Translations under genes and position numbers: made by a program | Notes under the pieces: generated by a model | The model's input: only the letters and a program-made list of their open reading frames with translations | Told to the model about the DNA's origin: nothing | Databases searched by the model: none | DNA from: Thermoanaerobaculia bacterium | GTDB taxonomy: Bacteria; Acidobacteriota; Thermoanaerobaculia; Gp7-AA8 | Length of the DNA stretch: 58,831 bases | Direction: 5' to 3' | Assembly (NCBI GenBank): GCA_049298815.1 | Contig: JBAQWH010000652.1 | Coordinates: 1-58,831, forward strand | Part shown: positions 23,807-43,785 of the stretch, piece after piece | Position numbering within the stretch: position 1 is the stretch's first letter | How the letters are laid out: every line of letters starts with the position of its first letter

Positions 23807-26611
23807 ATGGACCCGTCACAGCTCAAGTGGATCGCCAACTTCATCTGGGGGATCGCGGACGACGTTCTCCGCGACCTCTACGTGCGAGGGAAGTACCGCG
23901 ATGTCATCCTGCCGATGATCGTCCTCCGGCGCCTCGATGCGGTGCTGGAGCCGACGAAGAGGCCCGTGCTCGACATGAAGGCGTCGCTCGATGCGGCGGG
24001 GATCACGAATCAGGATCAGGCGCTGCGAACCGCCGCCGGGCAGGCGTTCTACAACGTCTCGAAGTTCACGTTGCGCGATCTGAAGTCGCGCGCCAGCCAG
24101 CAACAACTCAAGGCCGACTTCGAAGCGTACCTCGACGGCTTCTCACCGAACGTTCAGGAGATCCTCGACAACTTCGAGTTCCGCAACCAGATCCCGAGGC
24201 TTTCGAAGGCTGATGCGATCGGGACACTCATCGAGAAGTTCACGTCGTCTGAGATCAACCTGAGTCCCTCGCCCGTCTTCAGCGGCGACGGCAGCGTAAA
24301 GCACCCCGGCCTCGACAACCACGCGATGGGAACGATCTTCGAGGAGCTGGTGCTGCGCTTCAACGAAGAGAACAACGAGGAGGCAGGAGAGCACTGGACA
24401 CCGCGCGACGCCGTCCGGCTCATGGCGAACCTGATCTTCCTGCCGATCGCCGACCAGATCGAGTCCGGAACGTACCTGCTGTACGACGGCGCGTGCGGAA
24501 CCGGCGGCATGTTGACGGTCGCCGAGCAGACGCTACAGAAGCTGGCGGCTGATCGAGGAAAGCAGGTCGCGACGCATCTCTACGGACAGGAGATCAACGC
24601 GGAGACCTATGCCATCGCGAAGGCCGACCTGCTGCTGATGGGCGACGGCGAAGCCGCTGACAACCTCGTCGGAGGTCCCGAGCACTCGACCCTCGCGAAC
24701 GACGCATTCCCCTCACGCGAGTTCGACTTCATGCTTTCAAATCCGCCATACGGCAAGAGCTGCAAATCCGATCTCGAAAGAATGGGCGGCAAGGGCGGGA
24801 TCAAAGATCCGCGCTTCGTCATCTCTCATGCGGGCGATCCCGAGTATTCGCTCATCACGCGGTCCAGCGACGGGCAGATGCTGTTCCTCGCCAACATGCT
24901 GTCGAAGATGAAGCACGGAACGAAGCTCGGCAGCCGCATCGCCGAGGTTCACAACGGATCGTCACTCTTCACCGGCGACGCCGGACAGGGTGAGAGCAAC
25001 GTCCGACGCTGGATCATCGAGAACGACTGGCTCGAAGCGATCGTCGCACTGCCGCTGAACATGTTCTACAACACGGGAATCGCGACGTACGTGTGGGTGC
25101 TGACGAACCGAAAACCCGAGCATCGTCGGGGCAAGGTGCAGCTCATCGACGCGACCGGCTGGTACAAGCCACTTCGGAAGAACCTCGGCAAGAAGAACTG
25201 CGAGTTGTCGGACGACGACGTCCGGAAGATCGGCGACACGTTCCTCGCGTTCGAGGAGACCGAGCAGTCGAAGATCTTCGCGAACGAGGAGTTCGGGTAC
25301 TGGAAGCTCACGGTCGAGCGCCCGCTGCGCATCAAGGGCATCGACCCGAATCGCGCCTACACGGCGAAGGAGATCAAGGCGCTGAAGGAGACCGGCGAAC
25401 GCGACGAAGCGGCGCCGCCGGTCATCCGGAAGATCTACAAGCCGGGCAAGGTCGACTCAGACAGGTTACGCGGCCTCGCCGAGACCACCATCGACGGGAA
25501 GACTGTAATCGTTGAGTATGAGCCCGACCCTGATCTTCGGGATACCGAGCAGATTCCGCGACTTGAGCCGGGCGGCCTCGCTGCTTTCATTGAGCGAGAG
25601 GTTTGGCCGCATGTGCCGGACGCGTGGATTGACTACTCAAGCCTTCGTACTGGTTATGAGATCAACGTCAATCGTTACTTCTTCCACGATCAGCCCGCCC
25701 GCTCGCTCGACTCCATACGAGCGCAGATTGTGACGGTACAGAACAAGGCTTCCGACGTTATGTCGGAGCTGCTTGGCGTTCATATCGACCGAAGTTCCGT
25801 CATCAATGTTCCAGCCGGGCTGATGGCGAAGGTGCAGCCATACGCGACGTACAAAGACTCTGGTCTTTCATGGCTGCCACTGATACCCGAGTCGTGGTCG
25901 GTTGTGCGGAACGGTCGTCTGTTTGCTCAACGGAACGAAACCGGTTTTGCCGAGTTGCCGATCCTTGAAGTCTCTCTTCACACCGGTGTCCGCATTAGGA
26001 CTTTCGATGTTGCTTCGCGAAAGCAGGTTATGTCGGATCGCTCTGCGTACAAGAGAGCACGTTGCGGTGACTTGGCGTACAACATGATGCGGATGTGGCA
26101 GGGCGCCGTGGGCACGGCGCCTGTCGACGGCCTTGTTAGTCCGGCGTATGTTGTCGCGAGACCGTTCGCAGGAACGCACGTCAGGTATTTCGCGCACCTC
26201 TACCGCACCGCGATGTACATGCGGGAAGTCGAGGCGTACTCTCGCGGCATTGTTGCAGACCGAAACCGCTTGTATTGGACTGCGTTCAAGCAGATGACCG
26301 CACCGTGCCCGCCTGCTCATGAACAGGAAGCTATCGTTCGGTTCTTAGCACATGCTGATCGCCTGATAGTAGAGCTGCTCGGCAGCTACGGGCACCTCGC
26401 TGGAGTGGCTCGCTCAGTGGCCGAACGTGAGGCGTCGCTACTCCACGATTTTCGACGTCGGTTGTTTTCGGACGTCATCACCGGCACGCTCGACGTACGT
26501 GACGCTGCCGCGTCGCTGCCTGAAGTGGCGGAGATCTTCATGCCCTCTGGCGAGACGCTCGATGAAGAGTCCGAGGCTGCCGAAGCCGCTGAGGAGGAAG
26601 CGCTCGCGTGA
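23807..26611 (+). CDS. hsdM: type I R-M methyltransferase HsdM fused in frame to a single-TRD (half-size) HsdS
   Basis: HsdM N-terminus MDPSQLKWIANFIWGIADDVLR, motif I YDGACGTGGML and motif IV LSNPPYGKS. From about 25.75 kb there is an HsdS-like TRD (LPLIPESWSVVRNGRLF...LVSPAYVV) plus one conserved helical region. No stop separates the two parts. Confidence 0.85.
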   Translation: MDPSQLKWIANFIWGIADDVLRDLYVRGKYRDVILPMIVLRRLDAVLEPTKRPVLDMKASLDAAGITNQDQALRTAAGQAFYNVSKFTLRDLKSRASQQQLKADFEAYLDGFSPNVQEILDNFEFRNQIPRLSKADAIGTLIEKFTSSEINLSPSPVFSGDGSVKHPGLDNHAMGTIFEELVLRFNEENNEEAGEHWTPRDAVRLMANLIFLPIADQIESGTYLLYDGACGTGGMLTVAEQTLQKLAADRGKQVATHLYGQEINAETYAIAKADLLLMGDGEAADNLVGGPEHSTLANDAFPSREFDFMLSNPPYGKSCKSDLERMGGKGGIKDPRFVISHAGDPEYSLITRSSDGQMLFLANMLSKMKHGTKLGSRIAEVHNGSSLFTGDAGQGESNVRRWIIENDWLEAIVALPLNMFYNTGIATYVWVLTNRKPEHRRGKVQLIDATGWYKPLRKNLGKKNCELSDDDVRKIGDTFLAFEETEQSKIFANEEFGYWKLTVERPLRIKGIDPNRAYTAKEIKALKETGERDEAAPPVIRKIYKPGKVDSDRLRGLAETTIDGKTVIVEYEPDPDLRDTEQIPRLEPGGLAAFIEREVWPHVPDAWIDYSSLRTGYEINVNRYFFHDQPARSLDSIRAQIVTVQNKASDVMSELLGVHIDRSSVINVPAGLMAKVQPYATYKDSGLSWLPLIPESWSVVRNGRLFAQRNETGFAELPILEVSLHTGVRIRTFDVASRKQVMSDRSAYKRARCGDLAYNMMRMWQGAVGTAPVDGLVSPAYVVARPFAGTHVRYFAHLYRTAMYMREVEAYSRGIVADRNRLYWTAFKQMTAPCPPAHEQEAIVRFLAHADRLIVELLGSYGHLAGVARSVAEREASLLHDFRRRLFSDVITGTLDVRDAAASLPEVAEIFMPSGETLDEESEAAEAAEEEALA

Positions 26612-27264
26612 GGGTGACTCATCTTCCCGAATCGGGTACGATCATTCCCGAAATGGGAACAACACGGGCAGCGCAGCAGGCGAGCGCCGTCGCATCAGCG
26701 CTGTTCACGCCCGTCCAGCAGCGGGTCCTTGCACTACTCTTCGGTCAACCTGACCGACGCTTCCAGAGCGCTGAGCTGATCCGGCTCGCTCGCGGCGGAA
26801 CAGGTGCGGTTCACCGGCAGCTTCAACGACTCGCGAACGCGGGGCTCGTCACTGTCTCGCAGGACGGCAATCAGAAGTATTACGCGGCGCGGAAAGACTC
26901 GCCGGTTTTCGCCGAGTTGCACGGCCTTGTCGTGAAGACAGTCGGAGTCGTCGAGCCGCTACGTGCTGCGCTGCGGCCGATCGGGAAGAAGATCTCAGCC
27001 GCGTTCGTCTACGGCTCAATCGCCAAAGGGAACGAGCGGCCGGAGAGTGACCTCGATCTTCTGATCATCAGCGAGAAGCTCACCTACCCGGAAGCCTACG
27101 AGGCTTTGCAGGACGCGGAGCAGGAGATCGCGAGAACGGTCAACCCGACCGTGATGACGCCATCGGAATGGAAGCGGAAGCGGACTGCCTCCGACTCGTT
27201 CGCGAAGCGCATCGCCTCACAACCGAAACTCTTCGTGATCGGAGACGAGCGTGCCCTCGGCTGA
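26608..27264 (+). CDS. winged-helix plus minimal nucleotidyltransferase (MNT-like) protein
   Basis: FVYGSIAKGNERPESDLDLLIIS NTase motif. The GTG start overlaps the hsdM-S stop (GTGA). Confidence 0.8.
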   Translation: MRVTHLPESGTIIPEMGTTRAAQQASAVASALFTPVQQRVLALLFGQPDRRFQSAELIRLARGGTGAVHRQLQRLANAGLVTVSQDGNQKYYAARKDSPVFAELHGLVVKTVGVVEPLRAALRPIGKKISAAFVYGSIAKGNERPESDLDLLIISEKLTYPEAYEALQDAEQEIARTVNPTVMTPSEWKRKRTASDSFAKRIASQPKLFVIGDERALG

Positions 27265-27685
27265 ACTCGACCGGCTCGTTTCGATCAACCTGCTTTCTCA
27301 CGAGGCGCCGATTCGCGCCGAGTTCGAGGGTCTTCTCGAAGACGCTGCCGCGACGCTGACCGATTCTCAGAACGGAACGCTTTCACCGGAGAGCCGGTTC
27401 CGTCTCGCGTACGGCGCGGTCCATTCGATCGCCCTCGCAGCCCTCCGGTGGCATGGCTACCGACCCCGTAACAACCGACAGGTCGTCTTCCAAGCACTCG
27501 CCCACACGTTGCAGGTTCCCGCGCCGGTCTGGCGAATGCTCGCCCGCAGCCACGAGCAGCGCAACCGGCGCGAGTACGAGGGTCGCGGCGAGATCGACGA
27601 GCGACTGCTCGCCGACGTGATCGCCGCCGGGACCGACCTCCTCGCGCAAATCCGCCAACTTCCTTTACCCGAGGAGCCGGAGTGA
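27251..27685 (+). CDS. HEPN-like helical protein (partner of the MNT-like gene)
   Basis: Homolog of 10645-11055 (RFRLAYGAVHSIALAALRWHGYR...SHEQRNRREYEG). Overlaps the upstream gene by 14 nt. Confidence 0.7.
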   Translation: MPSAELDRLVSINLLSHEAPIRAEFEGLLEDAAATLTDSQNGTLSPESRFRLAYGAVHSIALAALRWHGYRPRNNRQVVFQALAHTLQVPAPVWRMLARSHEQRNRREYEGRGEIDERLLADVIAAGTDLLAQIRQLPLPEEPE

Positions 27686-30600
27686 AGACCGACACCAGCG
27701 AAGCAGGTCTCGAAGCCCTGATCGTCACCGCCATGACGGGACGCGCCGAGGTTCCGAGCGATGACGAGGTCCTCGACGCCTCGCTGCTCTACGGCGGCAC
27801 CGGCTGGATTCTCGGGCATTGGAAGGACTACGACCGCGACTACGCCGTTGATCTCAAGCAGCTCGCGGCCTTCGTTGCGGCCACCCAGCCGAAGGTGGCC
27901 GACGCACTCGCCCTCGAACACGACTCCCCTAACCGTCAGAAGTTCCTCGCACGGCTGCAAGGGGAGATCACCAAGCGCGGCATCATCGACGTGCTTCGGC
28001 ACGGCGTGAAGCACGGGCCGCTCCACGTCGACCTGTTCTACGGAACGCCCTCACCCGGCAACGCCAAGGCCGAGGAGAGGTTCGCAGCGAACCGGTTCAG
28101 CGTGACGCGGCAGGTCCGGTACAGCAAGGACGAGACGCAGCTCGCGCTCGACCTCGCTCTCTTCATCAACGGACTTCCGGTCGCTACGTTCGAGCTGAAG
28201 AACAGCCTCACCAAGCAGACGGTTCAGGATGCCGTCGAGCAGTACCAGAGGGACCGCGACCCGCGAGAACTCCTCTTCCAGTTCGGACGCTGCATCCTCC
28301 ATTGCGCCGTGGACGACCATGAGGTGCGGTTCTGCACGCACCTCAAGGGCAAGGGGTCGTGGTTCCTGCCGTTCAACAAAGGGTGGAACGACGGCGCGGG
28401 GAACCCGCCGAACCCGAACGGCCTCAAGACCGACTACCTGTGGAAAGAGACGCTCACGCCGCGCGGTCTGACGGAGATCATCGAGAACTACGCGCAGGTC
28501 GTCGAGAAGAAAGACCCGAAAACCGGGCGGGTCAACCGAGAGCAGATCTTCCCGCGCTACCACCAGCTCGACGTCGTTCGGAAACTGCTCTCGGCTGCGA
28601 AGGCCGATGGCGTAGGCAAGCGCTACCTGATTCAGCACTCCGCAGGATCAGGAAAGTCGAACTCGATCGCGTGGCTGGCACACCAGCTCATCGGGCTCAC
28701 ACGCGATGAGAAAGGCGTCTTCGACTCGATCATCGTCATCACCGATCGCATCCTGCTGGACAGGCAGATCCGCGACACGATCAAGCAGTTCGCACAGGTG
28801 GGAGCGACGGTCGGTCACGCGGACCATTCCGGCGACCTTCGGCAGTTCATCGCCTCGGGGAAGAAAATCATCATCTCGACGGTGCAGAAGTTCCCCGTCA
28901 TCCTCAAAGAGATCAACGAAGAGTCTGAGCACCGGAAGCGAACCTTCGCGATCATCATCGACGAGGCCCATTCCAGTCAGGGCGGGAAAGCCTCGGCTGC
29001 CGTCAACGAAGCGCTCTCGGTTTCCGGGACGGTGGATGAGGACGAGACGACCGAGGATCGTATCAACCGCATCATGGAGTCGCGGAAGTTCCTGCCGAAT
29101 GCGAGTTATTTCGCCTTCACGGCGACCCCGAAGAACAAGACGCTGGAGATCTTCGGCGTCCCCTACGACGAGGGCGGCGAGAGGAAACACCGCGCCTTCC
29201 ACCCGTACACGATGAAGCAGGCGATCGAGGAAGGATTCATTCTCGACGTCCTCCGCTTCTTCACGCGGGTCGAGAGCTACTACAAGCTCGTGAAGACGAC
29301 GTCGGACGACCCAGAGTTCGACACGAAGCGAGCGAAGAAAAAGCTACGGCGCTACGTCGAGAGCCATGACCACGCCATCCAGCTCAAGGCCGAGATCATG
29401 GTCGACCACTTCCACGAGCAGGTCATCGCGCTGAATAAGATCGGCGGGAAAGCCCGCGCGATGGTGGTGACGAGCAGCATCGAGCGGGCCATTCAGTACT
29501 ACCGCGCGATGAGCGCATACCTGACCGAGAGGAAGAGCCCGTACAAGGCCATCGTCGCTTTCTCAGATACGGAGATCGACGGCCAGAAGGTCACGGAGTC
29601 GATGCTGAACGGGTTTCCGTCCAACAAGATCCCGGACAACATCCGCGAGGACCCGTACCGATTCCTCGTGTGCGCCGACAAATTTCAGACCGGCTACGAC
29701 GAGCCGCTGCTCCACACGATGTACGTCGACAAGCCGCTCTCCGGGATCAAGGCTGTCCAGACCCTTTCACGGCTCAACCGCGCTCGCCCGCAGAAGTACG
29801 ACGTCTTCGTCCTCGACTTCATGAACGACGCGGCGACGATCGAGGCTGCGTTCGCGGACTACTACCGGACCACGATCCTCAGCGAAGAGACAGACCCGAA
29901 CAAGCTGCACGACCTCAAGGCGGCGCTCGACGGCTATCAGATCTACTCGATCGACCAGATCGAGGCGCTCGTTGCGTACTACCTCGGCGGGTCCGACCGG
30001 GACAAGCTCGACCCGATTCTCGATACCTGCGTGGCAAACTACGTCAGCCAGCTCGATGAAGATGGGCAGGTCGACTTCAAGGGGAAGGCGAAGGCGTTCA
30101 CTCGCACGTACGGGTTCCTGTCAGCCGTGCTTCCCTACACCAGCGCGGAGTGGGAGAAGTTGTCGATCTTCCTCAACTTCCTCGTCCCGAAGCTGCCAGC
30201 ACCGAAGGAAGAAGACCTTTCAAAGGGCATCCTCGAAGCGATCGACATGGACAGCTACCGCGTCGAGAAGCAGTCGACGATGCGGATTCAGTTACCTGAC
30301 GCCGACGCGGAGATCGGCCCCGTGCCGACGAGCGGAGGAGGCCACAAGCCGGAGCCGGAACTCGACCGGCTGTCGAACATCATCCGCACGTTCAACGACC
30401 AGTTCGGCAACATCGCGTGGTCGGATCAGGATCGCGTTCACCGGCTGGTGACGCAGGAGATTCCGGCGAAGGTCGCGGCGGACGTGGCATACCAGAACGC
30501 GGTGAAGAACTCGGATAAGCAGAACGCGAAGATCGAGCACGACAAAGCGCTGCTGCGGGCCGTCACCTCGCTGCTGAAGGACGACACCCAGTTTTTCAAG

Positions 30601-30690
30601 GAGTTCAGCGACAACGACTCGTTCCGGCGCTGGGTCACTGACACCGTCTTCTCGATCACGTACGACAAGACTGCTGGACCACCTCCGTAG
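27682..30690 (+). CDS. hsdR: type I restriction enzyme R subunit HsdR
   Basis: N-terminal PD-(D/E)xK (LDLALFINGLPVATFELKN). Helicase motifs QHSAGSGKSNS, IIIDEAHSSQ, FAFTATP and QTGYDEPLL. The GTG start overlaps the upstream stop (GTGA). Confidence 0.92.
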   Translation: MKTDTSEAGLEALIVTAMTGRAEVPSDDEVLDASLLYGGTGWILGHWKDYDRDYAVDLKQLAAFVAATQPKVADALALEHDSPNRQKFLARLQGEITKRGIIDVLRHGVKHGPLHVDLFYGTPSPGNAKAEERFAANRFSVTRQVRYSKDETQLALDLALFINGLPVATFELKNSLTKQTVQDAVEQYQRDRDPRELLFQFGRCILHCAVDDHEVRFCTHLKGKGSWFLPFNKGWNDGAGNPPNPNGLKTDYLWKETLTPRGLTEIIENYAQVVEKKDPKTGRVNREQIFPRYHQLDVVRKLLSAAKADGVGKRYLIQHSAGSGKSNSIAWLAHQLIGLTRDEKGVFDSIIVITDRILLDRQIRDTIKQFAQVGATVGHADHSGDLRQFIASGKKIIISTVQKFPVILKEINEESEHRKRTFAIIIDEAHSSQGGKASAAVNEALSVSGTVDEDETTEDRINRIMESRKFLPNASYFAFTATPKNKTLEIFGVPYDEGGERKHRAFHPYTMKQAIEEGFILDVLRFFTRVESYYKLVKTTSDDPEFDTKRAKKKLRRYVESHDHAIQLKAEIMVDHFHEQVIALNKIGGKARAMVVTSSIERAIQYYRAMSAYLTERKSPYKAIVAFSDTEIDGQKVTESMLNGFPSNKIPDNIREDPYRFLVCADKFQTGYDEPLLHTMYVDKPLSGIKAVQTLSRLNRARPQKYDVFVLDFMNDAATIEAAFADYYRTTILSEETDPNKLHDLKAALDGYQIYSIDQIEALVAYYLGGSDRDKLDPILDTCVANYVSQLDEDGQVDFKGKAKAFTRTYGFLSAVLPYTSAEWEKLSIFLNFLVPKLPAPKEEDLSKGILEAIDMDSYRVEKQSTMRIQLPDADAEIGPVPTSGGGHKPEPELDRLSNIIRTFNDQFGNIAWSDQDRVHRLVTQEIPAKVAADVAYQNAVKNSDKQNAKIEHDKALLRAVTSLLKDDTQFFKEFSDNDSFRRWVTDTVFSITYDKTAGPPP

Positions 30691-33237: not shown

Positions 33238-33867
33238 CTATGCTCCGTCGACAAGTAACTTCGCCGCACCCAGCAGGCCGGTCGTGATCTGCTCGTAGCG
33301 CGAAGTAGGCGGGGCACCGGAGAACTGTCCGCGAAGAAAAGCAGCAGGGTGTCTTTCCCGAGGCGCCAAAGGGGTGTTCCCGATCACGCGCTTCTCGAAC
33401 TTCTCTTGGCTGAATCGACTACGGTGCGCGATCGCATTCCGAATAGCATGCGCGCGACCGATCAGATCTCGCTGCGTCATTGACAACGAAGAGAACGGGC
33501 GACCCCCACGGAGGAACGTCTGGGCCCGTTCCAGAGTGTTCTCGATAGGAAGCCAGTCTACGTATCTTTTCGGGCCAAAACCGATTAGGAGTTCTCGTGC
33601 GATGGGATAGGACCTGATCGACACGCGCGGTTGCGAGCGTCGCCTTTTCGTCGATCGCGGATCGCTGATCAGCAGCGTCATGAAGAGGTCTTCGATGAAC
33701 ACCTCGAATGAGGTGAAGCTGCTCAGGAAGAGACTTTCATGGAGTTGCTCGGACACTCTTACCGGAAGCGCACCTGTCAGAACCAACGGTTCAACTCGGC
33801 CGCGAGTCTGGTTGAGCGAGTTGAACCGCGTCAGCAGTTTTTGAAAAAGCTCACTTGGCTCTGGCAC
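33238..33867 (-). CDS. HEPN-like nuclease (RiboL-PSP / MAE_28990-like) partner of DUF262
   Basis: Rx4H motif in AHAIRNAIAHRS. Overlaps the DUF262 gene by 17 nt. Confidence 0.6.
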   Translation of the reverse strand: MPEPSELFQKLLTRFNSLNQTRGRVEPLVLTGALPVRVSEQLHESLFLSSFTSFEVFIEDLFMTLLISDPRSTKRRRSQPRVSIRSYPIARELLIGFGPKRYVDWLPIENTLERAQTFLRGGRPFSSLSMTQRDLIGRAHAIRNAIAHRSRFSQEKFEKRVIGNTPLAPRERHPAAFLRGQFSGAPPTSRYEQITTGLLGAAKLLVDGA

Positions 33868-34936
33868 GTTTGACTTGCTCGTTCAAGAACCGCAGTCGTG
33901 TCTCGCGTGCCGGGTGGTGGTTCGTCGCACCTCGTAGCACTTCTGCGACATCGTCAGGCACGCTGCCCGTCTCGATCAACTCTGAAGCTCGCCTTACTGC
34001 CTCTGCCGCGCCTCGGGGAGCCGTCTTGGCCTTCATTCTGGTCAAGGAGGAACCGAGCCCGAACAGCAGGTCGTAGTAGAACGTGAAGAGCGTGTGAAAC
34101 AGCGGCTTGCGACGAAACTGGGAAGATGGCAGGTCCTTCCCGAGCTGGAGAGCAATAGCGTCAAACACGGCGCGGAAACGGTTCGCAACCTCTCCTGACT
34201 TCGGAAAATGGTCATCGAACAGCTCGTACACTTCGTGGATCAGTTTCAAGTCCTTACCATGCACGCCGTTCATCATGGTCAGGATCATGTCGCCCGTCTC
34301 CTCGACCTCCAGCATGCGGGCTATGTCGGTCTCGTTGAATACTCGCCAGTCGCGCCACCGATCAAGTTGCTCATAGGCGAGCTGGTAGCAGATGGTCTTG
34401 AAGGCACCGAAAAACTCGGCGTTCAGTAGCTCTTGGTTGTTCAGCTTGAACCCTGTCGAGTTCATACGACCGAAAATTTGGAGGACCTCCCGATCCTCTG
34501 CGTCATGGGGAAGGACGTGCACGCTGAGTTCGTAATTCAGGATCGCGACACGTACCTCCTTGGAGAGCTGAGAGAAGTTCAATCCGGAGATCGCCGGGTT
34601 GTGAACACGCTCAACGACGAAGGCATCACGCTCACCGTCGAAGTCCTTGAGGGACTGGGGTTCTACGAAGGAGATGAGCGTCCGTAGTCGCTGCTGACCG
34701 TCCACAACTTCTCGTTCAGGTTCCAGAGAGGTGGGGTTCGTCCTTTCCCGCAGGAAGATGATCGGCATGGGTATGCCGCGCACGACCGTGTCGATGAGAA
34801 GCGATTTTGCCTTGCGGGGCCAGACGGGCCGTCGCTGAAACGCGGGGCTCAGGATGAGCGAACCGACGCGATTCCACGTCAAGAAATCCGAGACCTTGAA
34901 CACTCGCGGGATGCTGATCACGGTCGAATTCTGCAC
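33851..34936 (-). CDS. DUF262 (ParB-like nuclease/NTPase, GmrSD N-terminal type) protein
   Basis: LQRRPVW-type motif (FQRRPVWPRKAKSLLIDTVVRGIPMPIIF) and VVDGQQRLRTLISF. Confidence 0.85.
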   Translation of the reverse strand: MQNSTVISIPRVFKVSDFLTWNRVGSLILSPAFQRRPVWPRKAKSLLIDTVVRGIPMPIIFLRERTNPTSLEPEREVVDGQQRLRTLISFVEPQSLKDFDGERDAFVVERVHNPAISGLNFSQLSKEVRVAILNYELSVHVLPHDAEDREVLQIFGRMNSTGFKLNNQELLNAEFFGAFKTICYQLAYEQLDRWRDWRVFNETDIARMLEVEETGDMILTMMNGVHGKDLKLIHEVYELFDDHFPKSGEVANRFRAVFDAIALQLGKDLPSSQFRRKPLFHTLFTFYYDLLFGLGSSLTRMKAKTAPRGAAEAVRRASELIETGSVPDDVAEVLRGATNHHPARETRLRFLNEQVKRARAK

Positions 34937-35117
34937 TGAAACCGACCCGAGCGTTACGGGAGGCGCCTGATCTGTGGAGTACGACGCGTACTCCGGCCGG
35001 GTCTCCGCAGCACGTCATATGGCCAAACGAGGTTCTGAACGACCCATGTCACTTCGCCGAAAATACGTCTTTTCGGCAAAGTGGCAGTAGAATGGTCCTC
35101 GCCCGCCGAGGAGGATC

Positions 35118-35738
35118 ATGGCCAAGCTCAAACTCGTCCAGCCGGAGAAATCGGCAAAGTTCCAGCCGCCACGTCGGAAGGCGAACAGCGAGACCCGCTC
35201 GCGGGAGTACCTCACCGTGCCCGAGGTCCGGAAGCTCCGGGACGGCGCGCGGTCAACCGGCCGGAACCCTCACCGCGACGGCCTGCTTGTCCTGATGCTC
35301 TTCCGTCACGGCTTGAGGGTCACCGAAGAGGCATCGCTCACGTGGGACGACATCCACTTCGATGACGGCACCATGTTCGTCCGCCGGGCAAAGAACGGCC
35401 GGGAGTCCCGGCACTTCATGGAGGGGGACGAGATCCGGGAGCTGAAGAAGCTCAAGCGCGAGTCGGCCTCGTCCCGCTTCGTCTTCTGCTCTGAGCGCGG
35501 AGGGCCGCTCTCGAACCGGTCGATCCACCACATCGTTAAGAAGGCTGGCGAGGAAGCCGGTCTCCCCTTCCCCGTTCACCCGCACATGCTCCGGCACGCG
35601 AAGGGTTACCAGCTCGCCCAAAACGGCGCCGACACCCGAGCGATTCAGGGTTACCTTGGCCACCGCGACATCAAGAGCACGGTGATCTACACCGAGTTGG
35701 ACCCGAACCGGTTCAAGGGCTTCGGTAAGGACCTTTAG
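35118..35738 (+). CDS. small tyrosine recombinase (FimB/FimE-size)
   Basis: Box I RHGLRVTE, HMLRHAKG, GHRDIKSTVIY with the catalytic Tyr. 206 aa. Confidence 0.85.
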   Translation: MAKLKLVQPEKSAKFQPPRRKANSETRSREYLTVPEVRKLRDGARSTGRNPHRDGLLVLMLFRHGLRVTEEASLTWDDIHFDDGTMFVRRAKNGRESRHFMEGDEIRELKKLKRESASSRFVFCSERGGPLSNRSIHHIVKKAGEEAGLPFPVHPHMLRHAKGYQLAQNGADTRAIQGYLGHRDIKSTVIYTELDPNRFKGFGKDL

Positions 35739-36307
35739 TCGGACAGCATCGGGCGCCTCGGCGCCGACAACTTCCCCTCCTTCTCAAGGAAGGTCCTGAC
35801 GCGCTCGTCGGTGAGTGCGCCCTCGCCGCTCGCTTGCGGGTTGCGCTCGATCTCCACATCCCACACCGCCCGCACGAGCGCCTCGATCTCGGTCAAGCAG
35901 TTCGGGTCCACCGCCCGATAGGACTCTGTCAGCGAGGCAGCCGCAGAGGTGTACGGCAACAGCCACGACCCGAAGTAGTGCCATACCGCGTCGGCTTCCA
36001 CGACCTCTTTGCGAAGCAGAAAGCCGAGGGTCTCGAAGAAGTTCAGGACGTCCCTGACTGCCTCGGCTTCGAGCGGGTCGCTCTGCCTGTCGAGGAGGTC
36101 CGCTGCCGCCTGTCGGCGGGTCTCGCGGAACTCTGCGGAGTCCCAGCGCGCGTCCATCGTCCCGAGCACGTCGAGCCCTCGGGAGAATCTCGCTCGTCGC
36201 CACTCGGCGATCTGCATTCCGACCGAGACCACGATGGCGAGCGCGGCGACCACAACCGACAACGCTTCAATCTCCATGCACTCAGTGTCGGTGAAGGAGG
36301 ATGGCAT
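35735..36307 (-). CDS. single-pass membrane protein (DUF4760-like, tentative)
   Basis: The start was chosen at MPSSF. One TM helix (ALSVVVAALAIVVSVGMQIA) is followed by a helical domain. The longer track ORF would overlap the ImmA gene. Confidence 0.5.
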   Translation of the reverse strand: MPSSFTDTECMEIEALSVVVAALAIVVSVGMQIAEWRRARFSRGLDVLGTMDARWDSAEFRETRRQAAADLLDRQSDPLEAEAVRDVLNFFETLGFLLRKEVVEADAVWHYFGSWLLPYTSAAASLTESYRAVDPNCLTEIEALVRAVWDVEIERNPQASGEGALTDERVRTFLEKEGKLSAPRRPMLSD

Positions 36308-36482
36308 CGCGGTATGCACCCTCTCGCAGCCGTGTGATGCACCGGCCGACGCGACCGCTCTCCTGTGACAGCACGGAACTTCCAAACGGTGGAGGGCGCA
36401 ACGCACCCACCGGCGGCGAAGTGCCACGCACGCCGAGGCTTCCGCAGGTGCGCCGCTGATGGAGCGAGGCGAAATGTTGTCC

Positions 36483-37355
36483 CTATTCGCCAAATAGCGG
36501 CAGCGAGCGACGGCGAGACGAGTCACGTTCGGCGCAGACGTCAGGCCCCCAAAGGGAAACCAGTTTGTCGGAGAACTTCACCACCTGAAACCGGACCTCC
36601 GGACGGTAGAACTGGATACCCCTTTCGTCGCGATAGCTCACGTAAGCAGTCCCCACTCTTACTCCGCCCTCCCAAGCCGAAGGAAGAATGGAATCGTCCT
36701 CCCACAGCCACGGTCGTGTGACACCACCGATCACTCGCAGCAACGAGAACGACCCGTCCCGCATACGGTGCCATTCTGTCAGTTCGCACTTCCAGCAGTC
36801 GAGTGCTCGCAGGCGCAGCAGCATCGCAGACTTGCTGACGGAGTACTCGTCAGCGAGGGCCTGCAGGGTCTCGACCGAGACGGGGCGATCCTTCGCACTC
36901 TTCTTGAGACTGCGCGCGGGCATCAGCAGCTCGCTCGCACCGACGTCGCAGAGCCGCTCTTCATCTGGAAACACGTCGTGCGGTCTAAATTTGATCTCGG
37001 GAACTAGCTCGTAGAAAAACGTGTGACAGATCTCGTGCGCCAGCGTAAAGCGGCGACGATTCTCCGATGCGCTCGGATCAATCAAGATGCGAAAGCCGTC
37101 GGCGAACGAGTTGCCGAGCGGCTCCAACGCCCCGGCGACGCCGGGTCGAGCCACCTTGTCAGTAGACCTGACATTTCGCGTTTTTAGAAGGAACTGCAGA
37201 CGCGCGTCTCGCGGTCCCCGCCTAGGGTAAGGCCTAGACGCCCTTCGTACGAGATCGCACATCACCCGCTCTGCTGAGAGATTAGCCCGTCCGGCTCGTG
37301 CGATGAACTTCTCGACGAGCTCACTCCGCGACGACAGTCTAGAAGAGCTTCCCAC
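36483..37355 (-). CDS. ImmA/IrrE-family zinc metallopeptidase
   Basis: HEXXH in FTLAHEICHTFF with a downstream ELLMP motif. Overlaps the upstream XRE gene by 17 nt. Confidence 0.8.
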   Translation of the reverse strand: MGSSSRLSSRSELVEKFIARAGRANLSAERVMCDLVRRASRPYPRRGPRDARLQFLLKTRNVRSTDKVARPGVAGALEPLGNSFADGFRILIDPSASENRRRFTLAHEICHTFFYELVPEIKFRPHDVFPDEERLCDVGASELLMPARSLKKSAKDRPVSVETLQALADEYSVSKSAMLLRLRALDCWKCELTEWHRMRDGSFSLLRVIGGVTRPWLWEDDSILPSAWEGGVRVGTAYVSYRDERGIQFYRPEVRFQVVKFSDKLVSLWGPDVCAERDSSRRRSLPLFGE

Positions 37356-38523
37356 TCGGTCCGCCTTTCGTTGTCACCTTCTGGTAGGCGCGATCCCAAT
37401 CAGCTTCTTTCATCGCCGCTGTGTACGTCTTCTGCGAGACCTCCGAGTGCTTTCTCGCCGCGCCGAAGCTGCGGCGCCAGTCGTCCCTCAGGCCGATCGC
37501 GGTCTTGGCATCCAGATCGGATCCGAGTTCCACCCACCGGCGCCATGAAGCATTGCTCTCGACCCAGACCGGATCGGTTTCGACCGATTCGCCGAGCAGG
37601 TAGCCGACACTCACATCGAGGAGGACGCTCATTCGGCGAAGCAACCGGGCGCTCGGATTTGTGACGGCAAACGGCTCGTGCATGAGTCGCTGCAGATACC
37701 CCAGACTGACCCCGAGGTCGTCTGCAAACTGGCTGTAGTCTCCGGACCAGTCGTTGATGAGCTTCGTCAGCCGAGGACCGAACGAGTCGTCATTCATCCC
37801 TCGGTACAGCGCGCGGTGCCGGAAGTGAAGACGTCGCAACTGCGTGAGACCCTCCGTGAGAGCTGCACGATCGATCGTGACGCCGATGTCGAGGTTACCT
37901 TCATATTGGATGTCGTGGCTGTGGATGAATGAACCCAACATCATCCGCGACAATCCACGCTTCGGAATCAGCCGCACGGCAGGAAGGCCCGCTTGAGTAA
38001 TGATCTCGTTCTCCTGGCCGACGCCATAACTGTTCGCCGCGCAAAAGATGATCACGCCGTCGAACGTGGAGGCTCGAGAGCGGTCGGTCAGGTAGACCAA
38101 GTCCGCGTCGAGATCGGGATTGTCGCGAGGGTGCGTGAAGTTCCCAGGCCAGTAGATCGAGAATGGCCGCGAGCTGAATTCAGTACTGCTCGCTACATCC
38201 TGAACCTGACCCACGACGCGCCGGAGTTCAGCATCGGCTCGCGGCGACAGTCCCGTCAGCGGCGACGCCAAGTAGAGGAGGATCTCTGGCGCGAGACGGT
38301 CGGTCTCGTTGAGGATGTCGCCGACCCTGAGTCCAAGCGCCTCGAACAGCTTACGCAGCTCAGGTTCAGACGGTTCTGCGACTCGGGTCATTAACTTAGA
38401 AATTCGCGATTGCTTCACGCCGGACCACGCCTCAAGTTGCGTCTGGGTGTAGTTGCGGTAGTGAATCAACTGCAAAAGACGCCCTAAGGCGTACTCGACC
38501 TGCTCCCTGCTCAGTGCGCGCAT
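37339..38523 (-). CDS. XRE-HTH / nucleoside 2-deoxyribosyltransferase-like / XRE-HTH fusion protein
   Basis: The start was set at MRALSREQ after a GGAGG RBS. HTH 1 is YTQTQLEAWSGVKQSRISKL. The central region has ILLYLASPLTG and DGVIIFCAANSYGVGQENEI, resembling the NDT YLAGP and D.GT..E.G motifs. HTH 2 is YSQFADDLGVSLGYLQRL. Confidence 0.7.
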   Translation of the reverse strand: MRALSREQVEYALGRLLQLIHYRNYTQTQLEAWSGVKQSRISKLMTRVAEPSEPELRKLFEALGLRVGDILNETDRLAPEILLYLASPLTGLSPRADAELRRVVGQVQDVASSTEFSSRPFSIYWPGNFTHPRDNPDLDADLVYLTDRSRASTFDGVIIFCAANSYGVGQENEIITQAGLPAVRLIPKRGLSRMMLGSFIHSHDIQYEGNLDIGVTIDRAALTEGLTQLRRLHFRHRALYRGMNDDSFGPRLTKLINDWSGDYSQFADDLGVSLGYLQRLMHEPFAVTNPSARLLRRMSVLLDVSVGYLLGESVETDPVWVESNASWRRWVELGSDLDAKTAIGLRDDWRRSFGAARKHSEVSQKTYTAAMKEADWDRAYQKVTTKGGPSGKLF

Positions 38524-38697
38524 GTGAACCTCCACGCAGCCACGATAGGGCAACCTTGGGGTTCCAGCCTGAATTCCGGTGGAATACTATGTCGCTTCTA
38601 CTATTCCATCGTAAGTTACTGACAACATAGAATGTTATGGCACCAGCATTCAACACCAACCCGCTTAGAATGATTACTGTACACGCAGGAGACGACC

Positions 38698-38820
38698 ATG
38701 ATCAGACTGAACCTCCGCCGCGTGCTCACCCTCGACGTCAAGTCACCCACGCCTCTTGAGCTTGCATCGCTTGCTGTCGTGCTTGCCTTCGTGGCAATCG
38801 TGGCCGCCCTGGCGTTCTAG
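38698..38820 (+). CDS. possible 40-aa hydrophobic-tail peptide
   Basis: AGGAGA RBS 7 nt upstream. Translation MIRLNLRRVLTLDVKSPTPLELASLAVVLAFVAIVAALAF. Divergent from the XRE gene and below the ORF-track cutoff. Confidence 0.3.
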   Translation: MIRLNLRRVLTLDVKSPTPLELASLAVVLAFVAIVAALAF

Positions 38821-39225
38821 AGCGTTAACGAATGGAACGAAATGGTTCGCGAAACTGCGAGGTCGCGACGGCAAGCGGCGTTCCCGCCGCATTGCGCGGG
38901 CCGGGAGTGACATCAGCGTCCCACCCGACTAATCTCGCCATTCTTTTTGTGACGCCATGATGCGAGCGACAGAGACGGGAGACCTTTCGCGAACTTCGTT
39001 CTTCCGTCGAAGGGCGCCTCGAATGGCTGCTCTGTCGGAGTGGCGAGCCGCACTCCCCGAAGTGGCTGCTGCGAGCTACTCCGGCTCGCTCACCTCCCCT
39101 TGTCCCGCGGCGTCCGGAAACGAGCGACGGCTGATCGGATCGTCGCCTGTTGACGCACAGAACGGTAGGGGCAACATCCTGCCTCCCCGAACGCCCGCGT
39201 AGGGCCGACCCTGAAACACTCACCG

Positions 39226-39290
39226 GTGGGTTAAACCAGCTCGCGCAGAACGCCGACGCGCGGGCTATTCAGGCGTTACTTCCTGATCGC
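39226..39290 (+). pseudogene. degenerate fragment of a tyrosine recombinase gene related to 35118-35738
   Basis: The DNA aligns to 35601-35668 at roughly 70 percent. The translation LNQLAQNADARAIQALL parallels YQLAQNGADTRAIQGYL. Confidence 0.35.
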
Positions 39291-39648
39291 ATGGATGGTG
39301 ATAGAGCACCATCATGTGGTTCGCGGCGTTCGCCGTAATCATCACAACTATTGTCCGACGAGACCGCCGGGAGATCACGACGCGACCGTGGAGCCACCGA
39401 GATGCGATGCCTTTCGAGCGCTCGCCTCCACTGGCTGTAGAACGTTCGAGCTAAGCGCGTGGCAATTCGCCGTCGCAGGTCTCCCCGCTGTCGCGGACGC
39501 CCGAGGATCGGCTTGTTTCACACGCGCCGGGAGCCGCACAGTGAACTCACGATGGGCGAGACTTCCGCTGCTGCTCTACACGATGCTGGAACACCGCCCG
39601 GTGCTTGCGTTCACGCTGAGAATTCAGCATCTTCCGCGAGGCGAGGAT

Positions 39649-39867
39649 ATGAAGAACGACGAGGAGTTGCTGGCGCTCAGCGCGTATCGCGATCTCTGGA
39701 TGGACTGGCGGTCGGGTGTGCTGACGCTCGCTGAAGCCGCATTCCTCGCGCGCCGGTGTGAATTCGAGACTCGGCTCATCGACCTCGGCGTGCCGCGCTG
39801 GCTGCGACCTGTCGCAGCTTGGCTCTTCGACTACCTCTTCGAAGACGACGCCATCGCCGGGACCTAA
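39649..39867 (+). CDS. hypothetical 72-aa protein
   Basis: ATG after GAGGCGAGGA. MKNDEELLALSAYRDLWMDW... looks protein-like, unlike the upstream part of the track ORF. Confidence 0.3.
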   Translation: MKNDEELLALSAYRDLWMDWRSGVLTLAEAAFLARRCEFETRLIDLGVPRWLRPVAAWLFDYLFEDDAIAGT

Positions 39868-40230
39868 CGTTGGGCCGGTGTCGATCCCGGTGCAGCTCGT
39901 ACGTACCAGAAGCGCACCGGGACGACGGCGTCATCGCCGTCGTCCCTCATGGTTCACGATCGTGTTGGCGACACTCGTGAAGATCGCAGCCGGGTGACGG
40001 GTAACAACGACAGACTCGCTGAACAAGCTAGTCCACCACATCCACGAGACGATGATCAGGATCGTCTACAGGACGCGCTGGTGCATGAACCTGCACAAGG
40101 AGGACCTCAGCGTCGTCCTCGACGGCATTGATCGCCACAGCGGCTCAGAACGCGCCGGTAGGAACCGACCCACAGGCTCGCGGTGGCGTGGGCCTCGTGG
40201 AATGTAGCGGCAGAGCTTGGGCGACTGGCG

Positions 40231-40785
40231 TTACACGCGCGCTGTGCGCCGACCAAGCAGAAATGCAAGGATCACCGCCACTCCCGCGATACCGGCCGAC
40301 ACATAGACGCGTCCGCGCCGATCGCCCGGATCCACGCCTGCCATAACAGACTTACCGGCCTTGAGGGCTTCGCCCAGAAGATTGGGAAGCGCGAGAACAA
40401 CATACAGTGCGAAGGCACCTAGGTAGACGAACCCGACCTGAGCCCAAAACCACGTGGAGTGATCCGGGGGCGAAGGTACGAACGGCCGACTATTGCCGTA
40501 CCACAGATGGTGCCCGACTTCACGAACGGTCTCTCCCGCACCTTCCGGTATAAATAGAGCTGGCCCCGGATAGAGCATCGCCAGTACCAATGAAATCGTC
40601 CCCGCGAGGAACAAAAAGCGAAGACGTCCGAGGTGAGTACCTAGTATGGACGCAACCGCGTCCTTCATCGTGTAGGGAGACGGTTCGAACTTCTTGAGCG
40701 CAAATACGGTCAGAACCAGCCCGGCAAGCAAGGCACTCGAAATACCGACGAACTTTGCGACAAATATTAGCTCAGACATGGACAC
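40231..40785 (-). CDS. polytopic membrane protein
   Basis: 184-aa ORF with four or more hydrophobic helices. It lies 6 nt downstream of the previous membrane gene, in a visibly AT-richer segment. Confidence 0.6.
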   Translation of the reverse strand: MSMSELIFVAKFVGISSALLAGLVLTVFALKKFEPSPYTMKDAVASILGTHLGRLRFLFLAGTISLVLAMLYPGPALFIPEGAGETVREVGHHLWYGNSRPFVPSPPDHSTWFWAQVGFVYLGAFALYVVLALPNLLGEALKAGKSVMAGVDPGDRRGRVYVSAGIAGVAVILAFLLGRRTARV

Positions 40786-40791
40786 TCCTAG

Positions 40792-41313
40792 CTATGATCT
40801 GCTGAGGCCAGCTCCTAATGTGGGGACTGAGCTTTCAAAGAGGACTTGCTTTACGAGCCCGATAACTCCTGTTACGGCGAGAGATTGAGCAGGAGCTACA
40901 ACCAAGGCGAACAGCCACGTCGCCGGTGTCATTATGTCCGGCATCATGCCGCGCTCCAGAATCAGCCACGTCACCCCTCCTATGAGAAGCGCGGCTATAC
41001 CGAGCACTAAGCAGACGCCTGAAACCATAGCCAAGAAGCCAAACCGTTCGAGCGTGCTTCGCGCGGGGAGAGCAGCGATCAGAAAAAGAACTAAGCCGAA
41101 AAGCAGCTTGGCTGGCGCCATAACGAGATACGGATACGTCGGAATGCGTACGTCAGCACGCACCATCGCGGCTAGGTAGCGCGTGCCGTCTACCCCAGTG
41201 GCGAAGCTCACACACGCGACAACCAGCAGCACGGTGACTAGCAGGACACGGGTCCTGCTTGCATGAGAGCCTGACATCGAAGGATCTCCTTTCATCGCGT
41301 TGGACAAACTCAC
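40792..41313 (-). CDS. polytopic membrane protein
   Basis: 173-aa ORF with several hydrophobic helices. Confidence 0.6.
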   Translation of the reverse strand: MSLSNAMKGDPSMSGSHASRTRVLLVTVLLVVACVSFATGVDGTRYLAAMVRADVRIPTYPYLVMAPAKLLFGLVLFLIAALPARSTLERFGFLAMVSGVCLVLGIAALLIGGVTWLILERGMMPDIMTPATWLFALVVAPAQSLAVTGVIGLVKQVLFESSVPTLGAGLSRS

Positions 41314-42498: not shown

Positions 42499-43785
42499 CT
42501 ACGCTACGGTGGCTGCGACGTCGTCAGCCATGATCGTGGTGACCAGCAACCCGTTCGCGTGCGGAACCGTGTACTCGTACGTCGTCACACGCAGGTGCTC
42601 CCGCGCGGGCGACCAAGCCTCGATGACGATGGCGTTACCACCCAAGGCCTCGGGACCTTCTTTTCCCGGCCGCACGACGATCCGCGTGACTAGGAACAGG
42701 TCCGTACGCCATGCGGACAATTCGGCGTTCACGACCTCGTTGGCGGTCAGCGTCACCCTCTCACCGTTCGAAGTAGTGCCCTTCACCTCGACGCGAACCT
42801 CCAGACCGTTCTTGACGCACCGGTAGTCGTACGGCTTCGTCTCAGCCGTCCTCTCCGCTTCGAAACCCTGCTTCACGTAGTGCTCATACGCTAGCGCCAT
42901 CGCCCGCTCCTCGACAGCCCTGCGAACAGCTACGTCTGGCTGTCGACCGGCGCGTCTCGCGAACACCTTCGGGGCCGGTTCAGGTGCGACTGCTGGAGGC
43001 TCGGCAAGGTTCGGTGCCGCGTGGTTCCCTTCTGGCCACAGCGCGTTGAAGGCATACGTCAACTCGTCGACTAGAAGCTCACCGCGAGCGGGGTCGAAGA
43101 ACTCGCTCCACACCTCGCGGTCCGTTTTGGAGACCGCAGGCATCCCGGCACCCTCCACCGTGGGGTCAAGGTGGCGGAAGTTCATCACCTTCGCGTACGT
43201 GCTCTCGACGGCTCGGCCAATGCGAACGGCCGTCGCTGCGATCGGCGAGTTCGGTGCCACCGAGACCTCGCCATGCTTGGTTCGCTCGTAAACCAACAAC
43301 GCCGCGATGTCTTCTTCGCGGGTCCAGTCACGGCCCGTCCTCTGCCACAGTGCTTCGAGACGACGGCCTTCGGCATCGCCCAGCTCGTAGTTCGTCTCGC
43401 TCGCCATCTTCAGGATGCGCAGGCTGCTCGCAACGGGATCGCGCAGCAGCCACTCACGCTTCACGACCTGCTTGCTGTTGGAGACGGCCTCGACCTTCAC
43501 ACTCACTCGAAGGTCCAGATCAGCGCCACCGTCGCTCTTCCAGAGCTGAACCGATACCTCGTCTTCTGGTCGCAGTCTCGGCGGCTCGGTGATCGTCCCG
43601 CTGGCCATCACTCCTGCATTGCCTCGCTTCTTGCCTGCTGAGCGCCAGAAGTAGACGCGGTCGCCAACGTGCATCCGGTCGGCCAGATGCTTTTGCCTGA
43701 CGGTCCACAGAACATCGGCACCGGGCTTCAGGTAGGCATCGAGATCGAAGTCGTCTGGGTTGCCCTGAAAGATCCACGCGTTCAT
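42499..43785 (-). CDS. EVE (PUA-like) domain fused to a DUF3883 PD-(D/E)xK nuclease domain
   Basis: N-terminus MNAWIFQGNPDDFDLD...GDRVYFWRS (EVE-like). The middle segment RIGRAVESTYAKVMNFRHLDP...SKTDREVWSEF is as seen in COG3183-type restriction proteins. C-terminus YDYRCVKNGLEVRVEVKGTTS...LTANEV (DUF3883-like). Confidence 0.75.
   Translation of the reverse strand: MNAWIFQGNPDDFDLDAYLKPGADVLWTVRQKHLADRMHVGDRVYFWRSAGKKRGNAGVMASGTITEPPRLRPEDEVSVQLWKSDGGADLDLRVSVKVEAVSNSKQVVKREWLLRDPVASSLRILKMASETNYELGDAEGRRLEALWQRTGRDWTREEDIAALLVYERTKHGEVSVAPNSPIAATAVRIGRAVESTYAKVMNFRHLDPTVEGAGMPAVSKTDREVWSEFFDPARGELLVDELTYAFNALWPEGNHAAPNLAEPPAVAPEPAPKVFARRAGRQPDVAVRRAVEERAMALAYEHYVKQGFEAERTAETKPYDYRCVKNGLEVRVEVKGTTSNGERVTLTANEVVNAELSAWRTDLFLVTRIVVRPGKEGPEALGGNAIVIEAWSPAREHLRVTTYEYTVPHANGLLVTTIMADDVAATVA

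Follow-up and report, generated by a model that had tools for sequence, protein, structure and literature searches.

A candidate protease-triggered repressor switch with an embedded nucleoside 2-deoxyribosyltransferase-like domain in an acidobacterial defence island

A stretch of 58,831 nucleotides (nt) from a Thermoanaerobaculia bacterium of the Acidobacteriota (assembly GCA_049298815.1, contig JBAQWH010000652.1, positions 1 to 58,831), referred to below as the window, carries a module of three genes that is the theme of this report. On the minus strand lies the gene for a 394-amino-acid (aa) protein (37339-38523), to which the name XNX is given here for its helix-turn-helix (HTH), nucleoside 2-deoxyribosyltransferase (NDT)-like and HTH parts; next comes the gene for a 290-aa IrrE/CapP-like M78 zinc metallopeptidase, M78 for short (36483-37355, minus strand), and divergent from both, on the plus strand, the gene for a 40-aa peptide (38698-38820). 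The original prediction for this DNA had joined XNX, the protease and a membrane protein into a unit framed by one intact and one decayed tyrosine recombinase gene. All of the features that it described were recovered in place, and it is right on the domain within XNX and wrong on where the unit begins and ends; it also missed the conserved third gene at 38698-38820 and a conserved operator-like region between that gene and XNX.

XRE-type HTH domains occupy both the N-terminal end (HTH1, aa 6-71; 38311-38508) and the C-terminal half (HTH2, aa ~247-310; 37594-37785) of XNX, as had been read from the sequence, with Pfam HTH_3 matching two stretches of the protein and each domain forming a five-helix bundle in an AlphaFold2 model of the full-length protein built with 42 homologues (pLDDT 79). 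Between them is the NDT/DNPH1-like domain (aa ~78-240; 37804-38292), and a helical C-terminal domain completes the protein (aa 318-386; 37366-37572), all encoded on the minus strand. HTH2 together with the C-terminal part (aa 247-394) resembles CapH, DdrO and SinR, and PADLOC capH matches aa 250-328 (E 9e-5). The two motifs that had first pointed to an NDT-like region, ILLYLASPLTG and SYGVGQENEI, are present and near-invariant across the 42 homologues; full-length homologues at ~50% identity number at least 260.

Assigning the central domain needed structure prediction and transitive matches through distant relatives: searches of Pfam, PADLOC, NCBIfam and the Protein Data Bank (PDB), with a single sequence or a profile, gave no significant match of the window XNX to NDT, and Pfam had no hit over residues ~80-240 of XNX and no PF05014 in close homologues either. 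A fold search with the full-length model gave E values no better than 5e-3, diluted by the multi-domain query, and was therefore rerun with the domain modelled by itself (pLDDT 85.8, pTM 0.84). Its best PDB fold match (Foldseek) is MilB, a CMP/hydroxymethyl-CMP (hmCMP) N-glycosidase (4ohb; TM 0.62/0.67, root-mean-square deviation (rmsd) 3.7), followed by the Enterococcus faecalis NDT-like protein 7m5h and human and rat DNPH1 (target TM-score, TMt, ~0.6), with nucleoside 2-deoxyribosyltransferases also among the matches (TMt ~0.5); the top matches had a probability of 1.0 and E values of about 1e-4 to 1e-3. FMN reductases were matched as well, with poorer superposition (TM ~0.45, rmsd >7), and the top matches in the viral structure library BFVD are mostly proteins annotated as nucleoside 2-deoxyribosyltransferase. 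At the sequence level, a domain profile run against 1.84 billion representative proteins drew in 509 clusters at E <=1e-3 (178 at E <=1e-10), and PF05014 appears below threshold over the homologous region in six of ten sampled distant relatives (E 1e-5 to 3e-3; cut-off 28.8 bits), one sampled relative additionally matching DUF4406. Because distant relatives match PF05014 there, the domain can be placed in the NDT (‘DrHyd’) superfamily as a divergent member lying below Pfam detection. Membership is thus indicated by the modelled fold, the catalytic motif and transitive homology where the Pfam threshold failed, and the NDT-like character first proposed for the domain stands.

The residues that would line an active pocket are retained. 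In a weak hhalign alignment with human DNPH1, whose sequence was confirmed against the PDB, D155, S165-GVG, E171 and S192 of XNX fall on D88, S98-GVG, E104 and S128, where E104 is the nucleophile and S128 a phosphate ligand. Y84, D147, S165, E171 and S192 are invariant among 42 close homologues, and across 125 representatives of all architectures conservation is 95% for the Tyr, 98% for the Asp, 100% for S165, 100% for the Glu and 96-98% for an S-R-M motif. With catalytic-type residues so highly conserved, a functional nucleotide pocket seems indicated rather than a mere scaffold, probably one for a nucleoside 5'-monophosphate. The domain shares with the N-glycosidases DNPH1, MilB and BlsM and with NDTs (PF05014 clan, DrHyd) a flavodoxin-like fold (TM ~0.6), the S-x-G-V-G-x-E motif with its nucleophile-equivalent Glu, and equivalents of the strand-1 Tyr, the Asp and the phosphate-binding Ser, but differs from them in its low identity (~15%), in an invariant YWPG..THP loop and SRM motif of its own, and in being embedded in a DNA-binding protein.

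The proposal that the next gene encodes an ImmA/IrrE-type HEXXH protease is borne out by matches to Pfam Peptidase_M78 (PF06114, E 2e-12) and PADLOC capP (E 6e-20) and by a HEICH motif at aa 107-111 (37023-37037, minus strand). A profile of 20 M78 family members, compared with the PDB, found IrrE (E 1.4e-16) and CapP (E 4.9e-9), the matches extending over peptidase and middle region, with corresponding positions in proteins of equal length. H107, E108 and H111 are invariant in the family, and so is R100, which aligns with R90 of CapP, a residue that binds single-stranded DNA (ssDNA) and whose mutation lowers ssDNA-dependent cleavage (PMC13228613). In the C-terminal ~100 aa of M78, Trp residues are conserved. 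The protease gene directly follows XNX, in the same orientation, at each of the 22 loci that have both genes complete; in the window the end of XNX and the beginning of M78 share 17 nt (37339-37355), the length given in the original prediction, and the two genes are apparently translationally coupled. One homologue, P0125 (702 aa), is a natural single-polypeptide fusion of HTH-NDT-HTH (XNX) to M78, and as a sequence it supports a functional link between XNX and M78, and that link only.

The core of the module, an NDT-like domain followed by an XRE HTH and accompanied by M78, is no one-off, as it comprises ~500 protein clusters at 50% identity; the 28 loci of a genome scan come nearly all from Acidobacteriota. 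What varies is the N-terminal part of XNX, which can be a second HTH (the form of the window), nothing at all (an NDT-HTH form of ~300 aa at loci L033 and L034) or a Ser/Thr protein kinase (a kinase-NDT-HTH form of ~600 aa), and M78 follows the kinase-NDT-HTH and NDT-HTH variants too, and adjoins a distant HTH variant at L040-L042. The kinase form is exemplified by a 607-aa Ser/Thr kinase-NDT-like-HTH protein followed by M78 between Tat, endonuclease V and FAD-enzyme genes (L039, 5001-7787), a fusion that recalls the kinase/repressor pair CapK/CapS. The likeness to CapK+CapS, an ssDNA-activated kinase that phosphorylates an HTH repressor, lies in the combination of a kinase with an XRE repressor; the difference is that here the kinase is fused to NDT-HTH and still paired with M78, and that XNX of the window has HTH1 in the kinase's stead. 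At L034 (6872-7902) two overlapping open reading frames (ORFs) encode the NDT-like part (213 aa) and the HTH part (138 aa) separately, which may reflect a genuine split or else a frameshift; immediately upstream, in the same direction, is the gene for a 122-aa membrane protein.

The third gene of the module came to light in an alignment of XNX upstream DNA from 20 loci, in which a start codon conserved on the other strand opens an ORF of 38-42 aa. Its product in the window, the 40-aa MIRLNLRRVLTLDVKSPTPLELASLAVVLAFVAIVAALAF (38698-38820, plus strand; NCBI: hypothetical protein WA208_18590), has a basic N-terminal segment, a conserved (R/K)PT..E motif and a single hydrophobic helix, and the family follows the pattern M-I-R-F-N-F-R-x-L-G-K-F-D-I-x-R-P-T-x-L-E-I-A-x-L, then the hydrophobic helix. 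Pairwise differences by codon position (1208/694/1667) show a coding substitution pattern, and a hidden Markov model of the peptide places it divergently from XNX at 24 loci. At least 87 clusters belong to the family, almost all of 38-42 aa and every one annotated hypothetical, with no match in Pfam or NCBIfam. The association also holds when approached from the peptide: all seven places (L043-L049) around two other members of the family have a divergent HTH gene encoding ~400 aa, and M78 is found wherever the contig extends far enough. At L043/L044 (4001-5682) a 516-aa HEPN_AbiV gene begins 9 nt after the peptide gene, an arrangement that fits a toxic output arm. AbiE genes (AbiEi/AbiEii) flank the module at L043/L044, L021, L040 and L046-L049. 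The peptide gene was not found upstream of the distant variants L039 and L040, and the peptide thus appears specific to the subfamily of the window, where it is a candidate output or effector of the switch.

Peptide and XNX genes are separated by a divergent regulatory region of 174 nt (38524-38697) whose length is nearly fixed, start codons lying 164-198 nt apart across 17 loci. It contains the conserved blocks AAGGAAT ... GnATAA ... AATAnTA-N-ATAGTATkC ... CATTCCTTG and, in the window, GGAAT/ATTCC half-sites at 38573-38577, 38581-38585 and 38603-38607, the latter two within the imperfect dyad GGAATAcTA-N9-TAcTATTCC (38581-38607). GGAAT/ATTCC occurs 2.65 times per 180 nt in these regions compared with 0.40 in background windows and 0.35 in shuffles, an enrichment of about 7-fold, and the half-sites are presumed XNX operators that would overlap both promoters. 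An Rfam scan of 34900-39900 matched no family, and a terminator scan gave counts at chance level.

Beyond M78, the genes that had been drawn into the same unit part company with it. About 200 nt downstream of M78 is the gene for a membrane protein of about 172-181 aa with an N-terminal hydrophobic helix (35735-36280, minus strand), whose DUF4760 identity is secure (PF15956, E 1.5e-9, 38.6 bits above a gathering cut-off of 25, profile positions 9-139 of 141), in agreement with the membrane protein foreseen at this place; tblastn found no homologue of it in 34 related loci, and the only eight close homologues detected stand solitary in other defence islands, beside ThsB/TIR, caspase or HNH genes and without XRE, M78 or recombinase genes. 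The 206-aa tyrosine recombinase (35118-35738, plus strand), correctly recognised at the outset (Pfam Phage_integrase, E 2e-38), consists of the catalytic domain only and is FimB/FimE-invertase-like: its best NCBIfam matches are the tyrosine-type DNA invertases NF007370 and NF007371 (E 1.3e-39, full length), at a score of 136 bits that lies below the curated cut-off of ~221. Related loci (34, tblastn) gave one weak recombinase match only, ~5 kb away. The recombinase remnant at 39228-39280 (plus strand; direct repeat family D1) is real, its ~52 nt corresponding to nt 486-537 of the complete gene, both reading the same way, at ~80% identity with indels, and its local alignment score of 47 exceeds chance (20.1 +/- 2.2, maximum 30, in 200 shuffles). 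It shows past rearrangement in the island, and nothing ties it to the module.

The cassette of DUF4760, M78 and XNX imagined in the original prediction, small, mobile or once duplicated, and carried by the recombinase with the remnant marking its other end, draws on exactly these two features, which do bracket the genes, and the imperfect repeats at 35603-35655 and 39228-39280 could be old att-like duplications. Yet the repeat is short and only ~80% identical, the recombinase is unlinked to the module in related loci and is invertase-like, with neither an N-terminal arm-binding nor a core-binding domain, DUF4760 behaves independently of the module, and no break in composition is seen (G+C of the window ~62%). 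As for an invertible segment, only weak inverted repeats were seen (14-24 nt, 71-93% complementarity), as expected by chance in GC-rich DNA, and repeats that might mark a mobile or invertible segment are at chance level apart from the remnant itself. The cassette is therefore very unlikely, and because the trio is not conserved elsewhere, an outcome that the prediction itself had named as refuting, its unit fails; on the sequence comparisons, DUF4760, recombinase and remnant are best taken as unrelated neighbours in a defence island.

A prophage or integrative and conjugative element (ICE) immunity region of the ImmR/ImmA type, which had also been named as grounds for dismissing the module, would account for the same protein families, an XRE repressor and an M78 protease, and for the divergent promoter layout. 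The surroundings speak otherwise: no phage or conjugation genes are nearby, the neighbours being type I restriction-modification (R-M), Mrr, GmrSD-like and EVE-NOV_C genes, XNX gave no tblastn match among 50,697 phage and 72,556 plasmid records, and in other genomes the pair sits between housekeeping genes. We regard this explanation as extremely improbable; the XNX neighbourhood is a defence island, not a prophage.

If XNX and M78 are a switch, the genes downstream of M78 might be what is switched, and it is possible, if doubtful, that the pair is purely a CapH/CapP-type regulator turning on neighbouring defence cargo (DUF4760 in the window), with the NDT-like domain serving oligomerisation or ligand sensing and the peptide as an accessory. 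The PADLOC capP and capH matches and the location of the module in defence islands accord with such a role, as does candidate cargo at individual loci: a SIR2-like (SIR2_2) gene after M78 at L006, Dcm, PRTase-CE and ORC/CDC6 after M78 at L001, and the HEPN_AbiV gene that follows the peptide gene at L043/L044. Elsewhere M78 is followed by ThyX-like and Vsr genes, a resolvase, AbiEi, an epimerase/Asn synthase or genes of no assigned kind, or else by opposite-strand genes or nothing; the downstream genes are heterogeneous and no cargo is conserved among the loci. Many loci are flanked on both sides by housekeeping or opposite-strand genes (XNX-M78 lies between housekeeping genes at L003, L006 and L039), DUF4760 never co-occurs elsewhere, and catalytic-type residues conserved at 95-100% exceed what a scaffold would need, all of which counts against a regulator of neighbouring cargo alone. 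The ThyX-like case, in a Limnocylindrales (Chloroflexota) metagenome-assembled genome (L010, 4417-6510), has a 530-aa protein with a ThyX (Thy1) domain downstream of the module and then Vsr, placing a nucleotide-modification and repair context beside a nucleotide-glycosidase-like regulator.

The best explanation, in which we place middling confidence, is that the peptide gene (38698-38820, plus strand) and the XNX-M78 operon (36483-38523, minus strand) constitute a self-contained three-gene, protease-triggered repressor switch. XNX would act as an autorepressor that binds GGAAT-type half-sites through its HTH domains, is held as an oligomer by the NDT-like and C-terminal helical domains, and keeps the peptide gene as well as its own operon silent. 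If the IrrE-DdrO and CapP-CapH pairs are a guide, M78 would be activated by a cue of damage or infection, probably ssDNA, and would then cut XNX in its CapH/DdrO-like part (HTH2 and C-terminal), releasing it from DNA. Derepression of the operon and of the small membrane peptide would follow, the latter predicted to be toxin-like or membrane-perturbing under a logic like that of SOS-induced TisB. The NDT-like domain, with what is presumably a functioning pocket for a nucleotide, a nucleoside 5'-monophosphate being the likeliest, could contribute either as an N-glycosidase effector whose activity changes upon repressor cleavage or as a nucleotide-sensing input that tunes repression or cleavage. 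An effector is slightly favoured because minimal NDT-HTH plus M78 systems and housekeeping-flanked loci offer no other candidate effector, because NDT/DrHyd domains have been proposed as effectors in other conflict systems, and because conservation of the nucleophile-equivalent Glu reaches 100%; a sensor role is fully possible.

Several points weigh against this explanation. NDT went undetected in the window protein itself in the Pfam and PDB sequence searches, and the residue alignment with DNPH1 is weak (hhalign E 0.007, probability 5%, D155-S192 only), Y84 having been equated with DNPH1 Y24 and D147 with D80 manually, by extending the hhalign register by eye. M78 aligns to IrrE and CapP over aa ~70-190 only; the alignment does not take in the C-terminal ~100 aa, where proteases of this kind have a GAF domain in addition to peptidase and HTH-like domains and an ssDNA-binding groove. 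A promoter scan found no sigma-70 consensus promoter in the regulatory region of the window, and L001 and the distant kinase and HTH variants lack the peptide gene, which therefore cannot be a universal output. The plausible cargo after M78 (SIR2_2; Dcm, PRTase-CE and ORC/CDC6) favours the pure-regulator account, and we infer cleavage, DNA binding, enzyme activity and peptide toxicity alike.

The paired genes also invite comparison with toxin-antitoxin (TA) systems. An XRE/COG2856 addiction module, with M78 or the NDT-like enzyme as toxin and the HTH parts as antitoxin and autorepressor, would stabilise genomic islands with no sensing of infection; Xre-COG2856 pairs have been predicted to be TA-like mobile modules (PMC2701414), the distribution of the module is patchy, and GC3 (the G+C content of third codon positions) of the pair is below that of flanking housekeeping genes at several loci (0.60 against 0.72 at L003). 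More broadly, GC3 of XNX and M78 is ~0.55-0.62 where the flanking housekeeping genes have ~0.70-0.75 (L003, L007, L015, L016 and others), and the lower values suggest horizontal acquisition of the module. Set against an addiction role, which we judge unlikely, are the characterised IrrE/DdrO, CapP/CapH and ImmA/ImmR pairs, which are signal-responsive switches and not classical TA pairs, and the conserved divergent peptide gene with its elaborate operator region, which fits regulated expression.

The most elaborate form of the repressor switch, a ‘pro-enzyme repressor’, is speculative and rather improbable as a whole. During phage infection or DNA damage, ssDNA-activated M78 would cut XNX, and cutting would both derepress a 40-aa toxin and free or activate a DNPH1/MilB-like N-glycosidase that destroys nucleoside monophosphates, possibly hypermodified phage monophosphates such as hydroxymethyl-dCMP or -dUMP (hm-dCMP or hm-dUMP). 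In a related reading the NDT-like domain might instead sense such deoxynucleoside monophosphates (dNMPs) as a danger signal, for which m6-dAMP, reported as such in a different system, offers a dNMP precedent (doi 10.64898/2026.01.15.699771). Were the ‘pro-enzyme repressor’ true, it would amount to a two-armed form of abortive infection, with a single polypeptide serving as repressor, sensor target and effector.

Among known systems the closest are CapH+CapP and DdrO+IrrE (PprI), in which an XRE repressor gene likewise adjoins the gene of a ~290-aa M78/COG2856 HEXXH peptidase. The former regulates CBASS and other immune operons, the latter the Deinococcus radiation response. Further likenesses are the protease profile, the CapP R90 equivalent, HTH2 with the C-terminal part, and the defence-island setting, and cleavage followed by derepression is the likely common logic, the mechanisms of CapP and IrrE being taken from PMC13228613. 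The CapH and DdrO repressors, however, are small proteins of ~100-130 aa that comprise an HTH and a C-terminal dimerisation domain and nothing more, whereas in XNX, at 394 aa, the CapH-like part is preceded by a second HTH and an inserted catalytic-type NDT/DNPH1-like domain; the order of the XNX module, with the repressor gene ahead of the protease gene and overlapping it, is a further difference; and CapH/CapP lies beside an immune operon that it regulates, whereas the XNX module has a divergent 40-aa peptide gene and no conserved downstream immune operon.

Two further comparisons can be drawn. TisB and DinQ are SOS-controlled small membrane toxins, and Hok and Fst are type I toxins; a ~40-aa peptide with a single transmembrane helix under a damage-responsive repressor would be akin to these, but the sequences are not similar, an antisense RNA was not identified, and control would lie with XRE/M78 and not LexA. 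BirA, NrtR and PurR are transcription factors that use enzyme-fold domains, and the fusion of a nucleotide-metabolising fold to a DNA-binding domain in XNX similarly suggests metabolite-coupled repression, with the differences that the fold is that of NDT, that a dedicated protease is present, and that catalytic residues are kept, unlike in most NrtR and PurR sensors.

We found no paper joining NDT/DrHyd with XRE/M78, within a literature coverage that is incomplete, in keeping with the original view that the architecture is undescribed; the module is real and widespread, and seems to be an undescribed variant of the kind of switch represented by CapH/CapP and DdrO/IrrE. IrrE/DdrO, CapP/CapH and ImmA/ImmR are known LexA-independent means of coupling DNA damage or phage infection to expression, and in the XNX family the repressor has gained a nucleotide-glycosidase domain with its catalytic-type residues intact, other members having a protein kinase instead. 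This makes for a tractable two- or three-gene system in which to ask if a switch of this kind integrates a nucleotide signal or directly delivers an enzymatic effector, adds an uncharacterised family of 40-aa membrane peptides as probable output, and would add to the roles that the NDT/DrHyd superfamily plays in conflict systems of bacteria.

The island around the module holds further defence genes. Upstream in the window are an Mrr restriction endonuclease (22720-23634), a defence-island neighbour of the module, and type I R-M hsdM and hsdR genes with a nucleotidyltransferase gene in between (23645-30690); HsdM is unusually long (988 aa), HsdR has 1002 aa, the inserted gene encodes a Polbeta/NTP_transf_2 nucleotidyltransferase, and no separate hsdS was identified in the Mrr/type I R-M region (22720-30690). 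Two overlapping minus-strand genes at 33238-34936, divergent from the recombinase, encode a 361-aa GmrSD_N protein (PADLOC NsnA-like, E 3.5e-32) and then a 209-aa protein weakly resembling HEPN (Swt1-like), and look like a separate two-gene defence system. On the other side, the peptide gene is followed by ~400 nt that look non-coding, then by the recombinase remnant and an ORF with no family match (39295-39867, plus strand), the interval running from 38821 to 39867. Two adjoining minus-strand genes for multi-pass membrane proteins of 184 and 173 aa with no Pfam match (40231-41313) come next, then ORFs of 146 aa and 155 aa of unidentified family and a 428-aa EVE-NOV_C protein (42499-43785, minus strand), whose N-terminal EVE is a modified-base reader domain and whose NOV_C is restriction-endonuclease-like, so that the protein is probably a modification-dependent nuclease. 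The same neighbourhood includes genes for an ankyrin-repeat protein and a UDG-like protein. The sole tRNA of the window, tRNA-Glu(CTC) (13112-13187, minus strand), is a possible integration hotspot at the border of the variable region.

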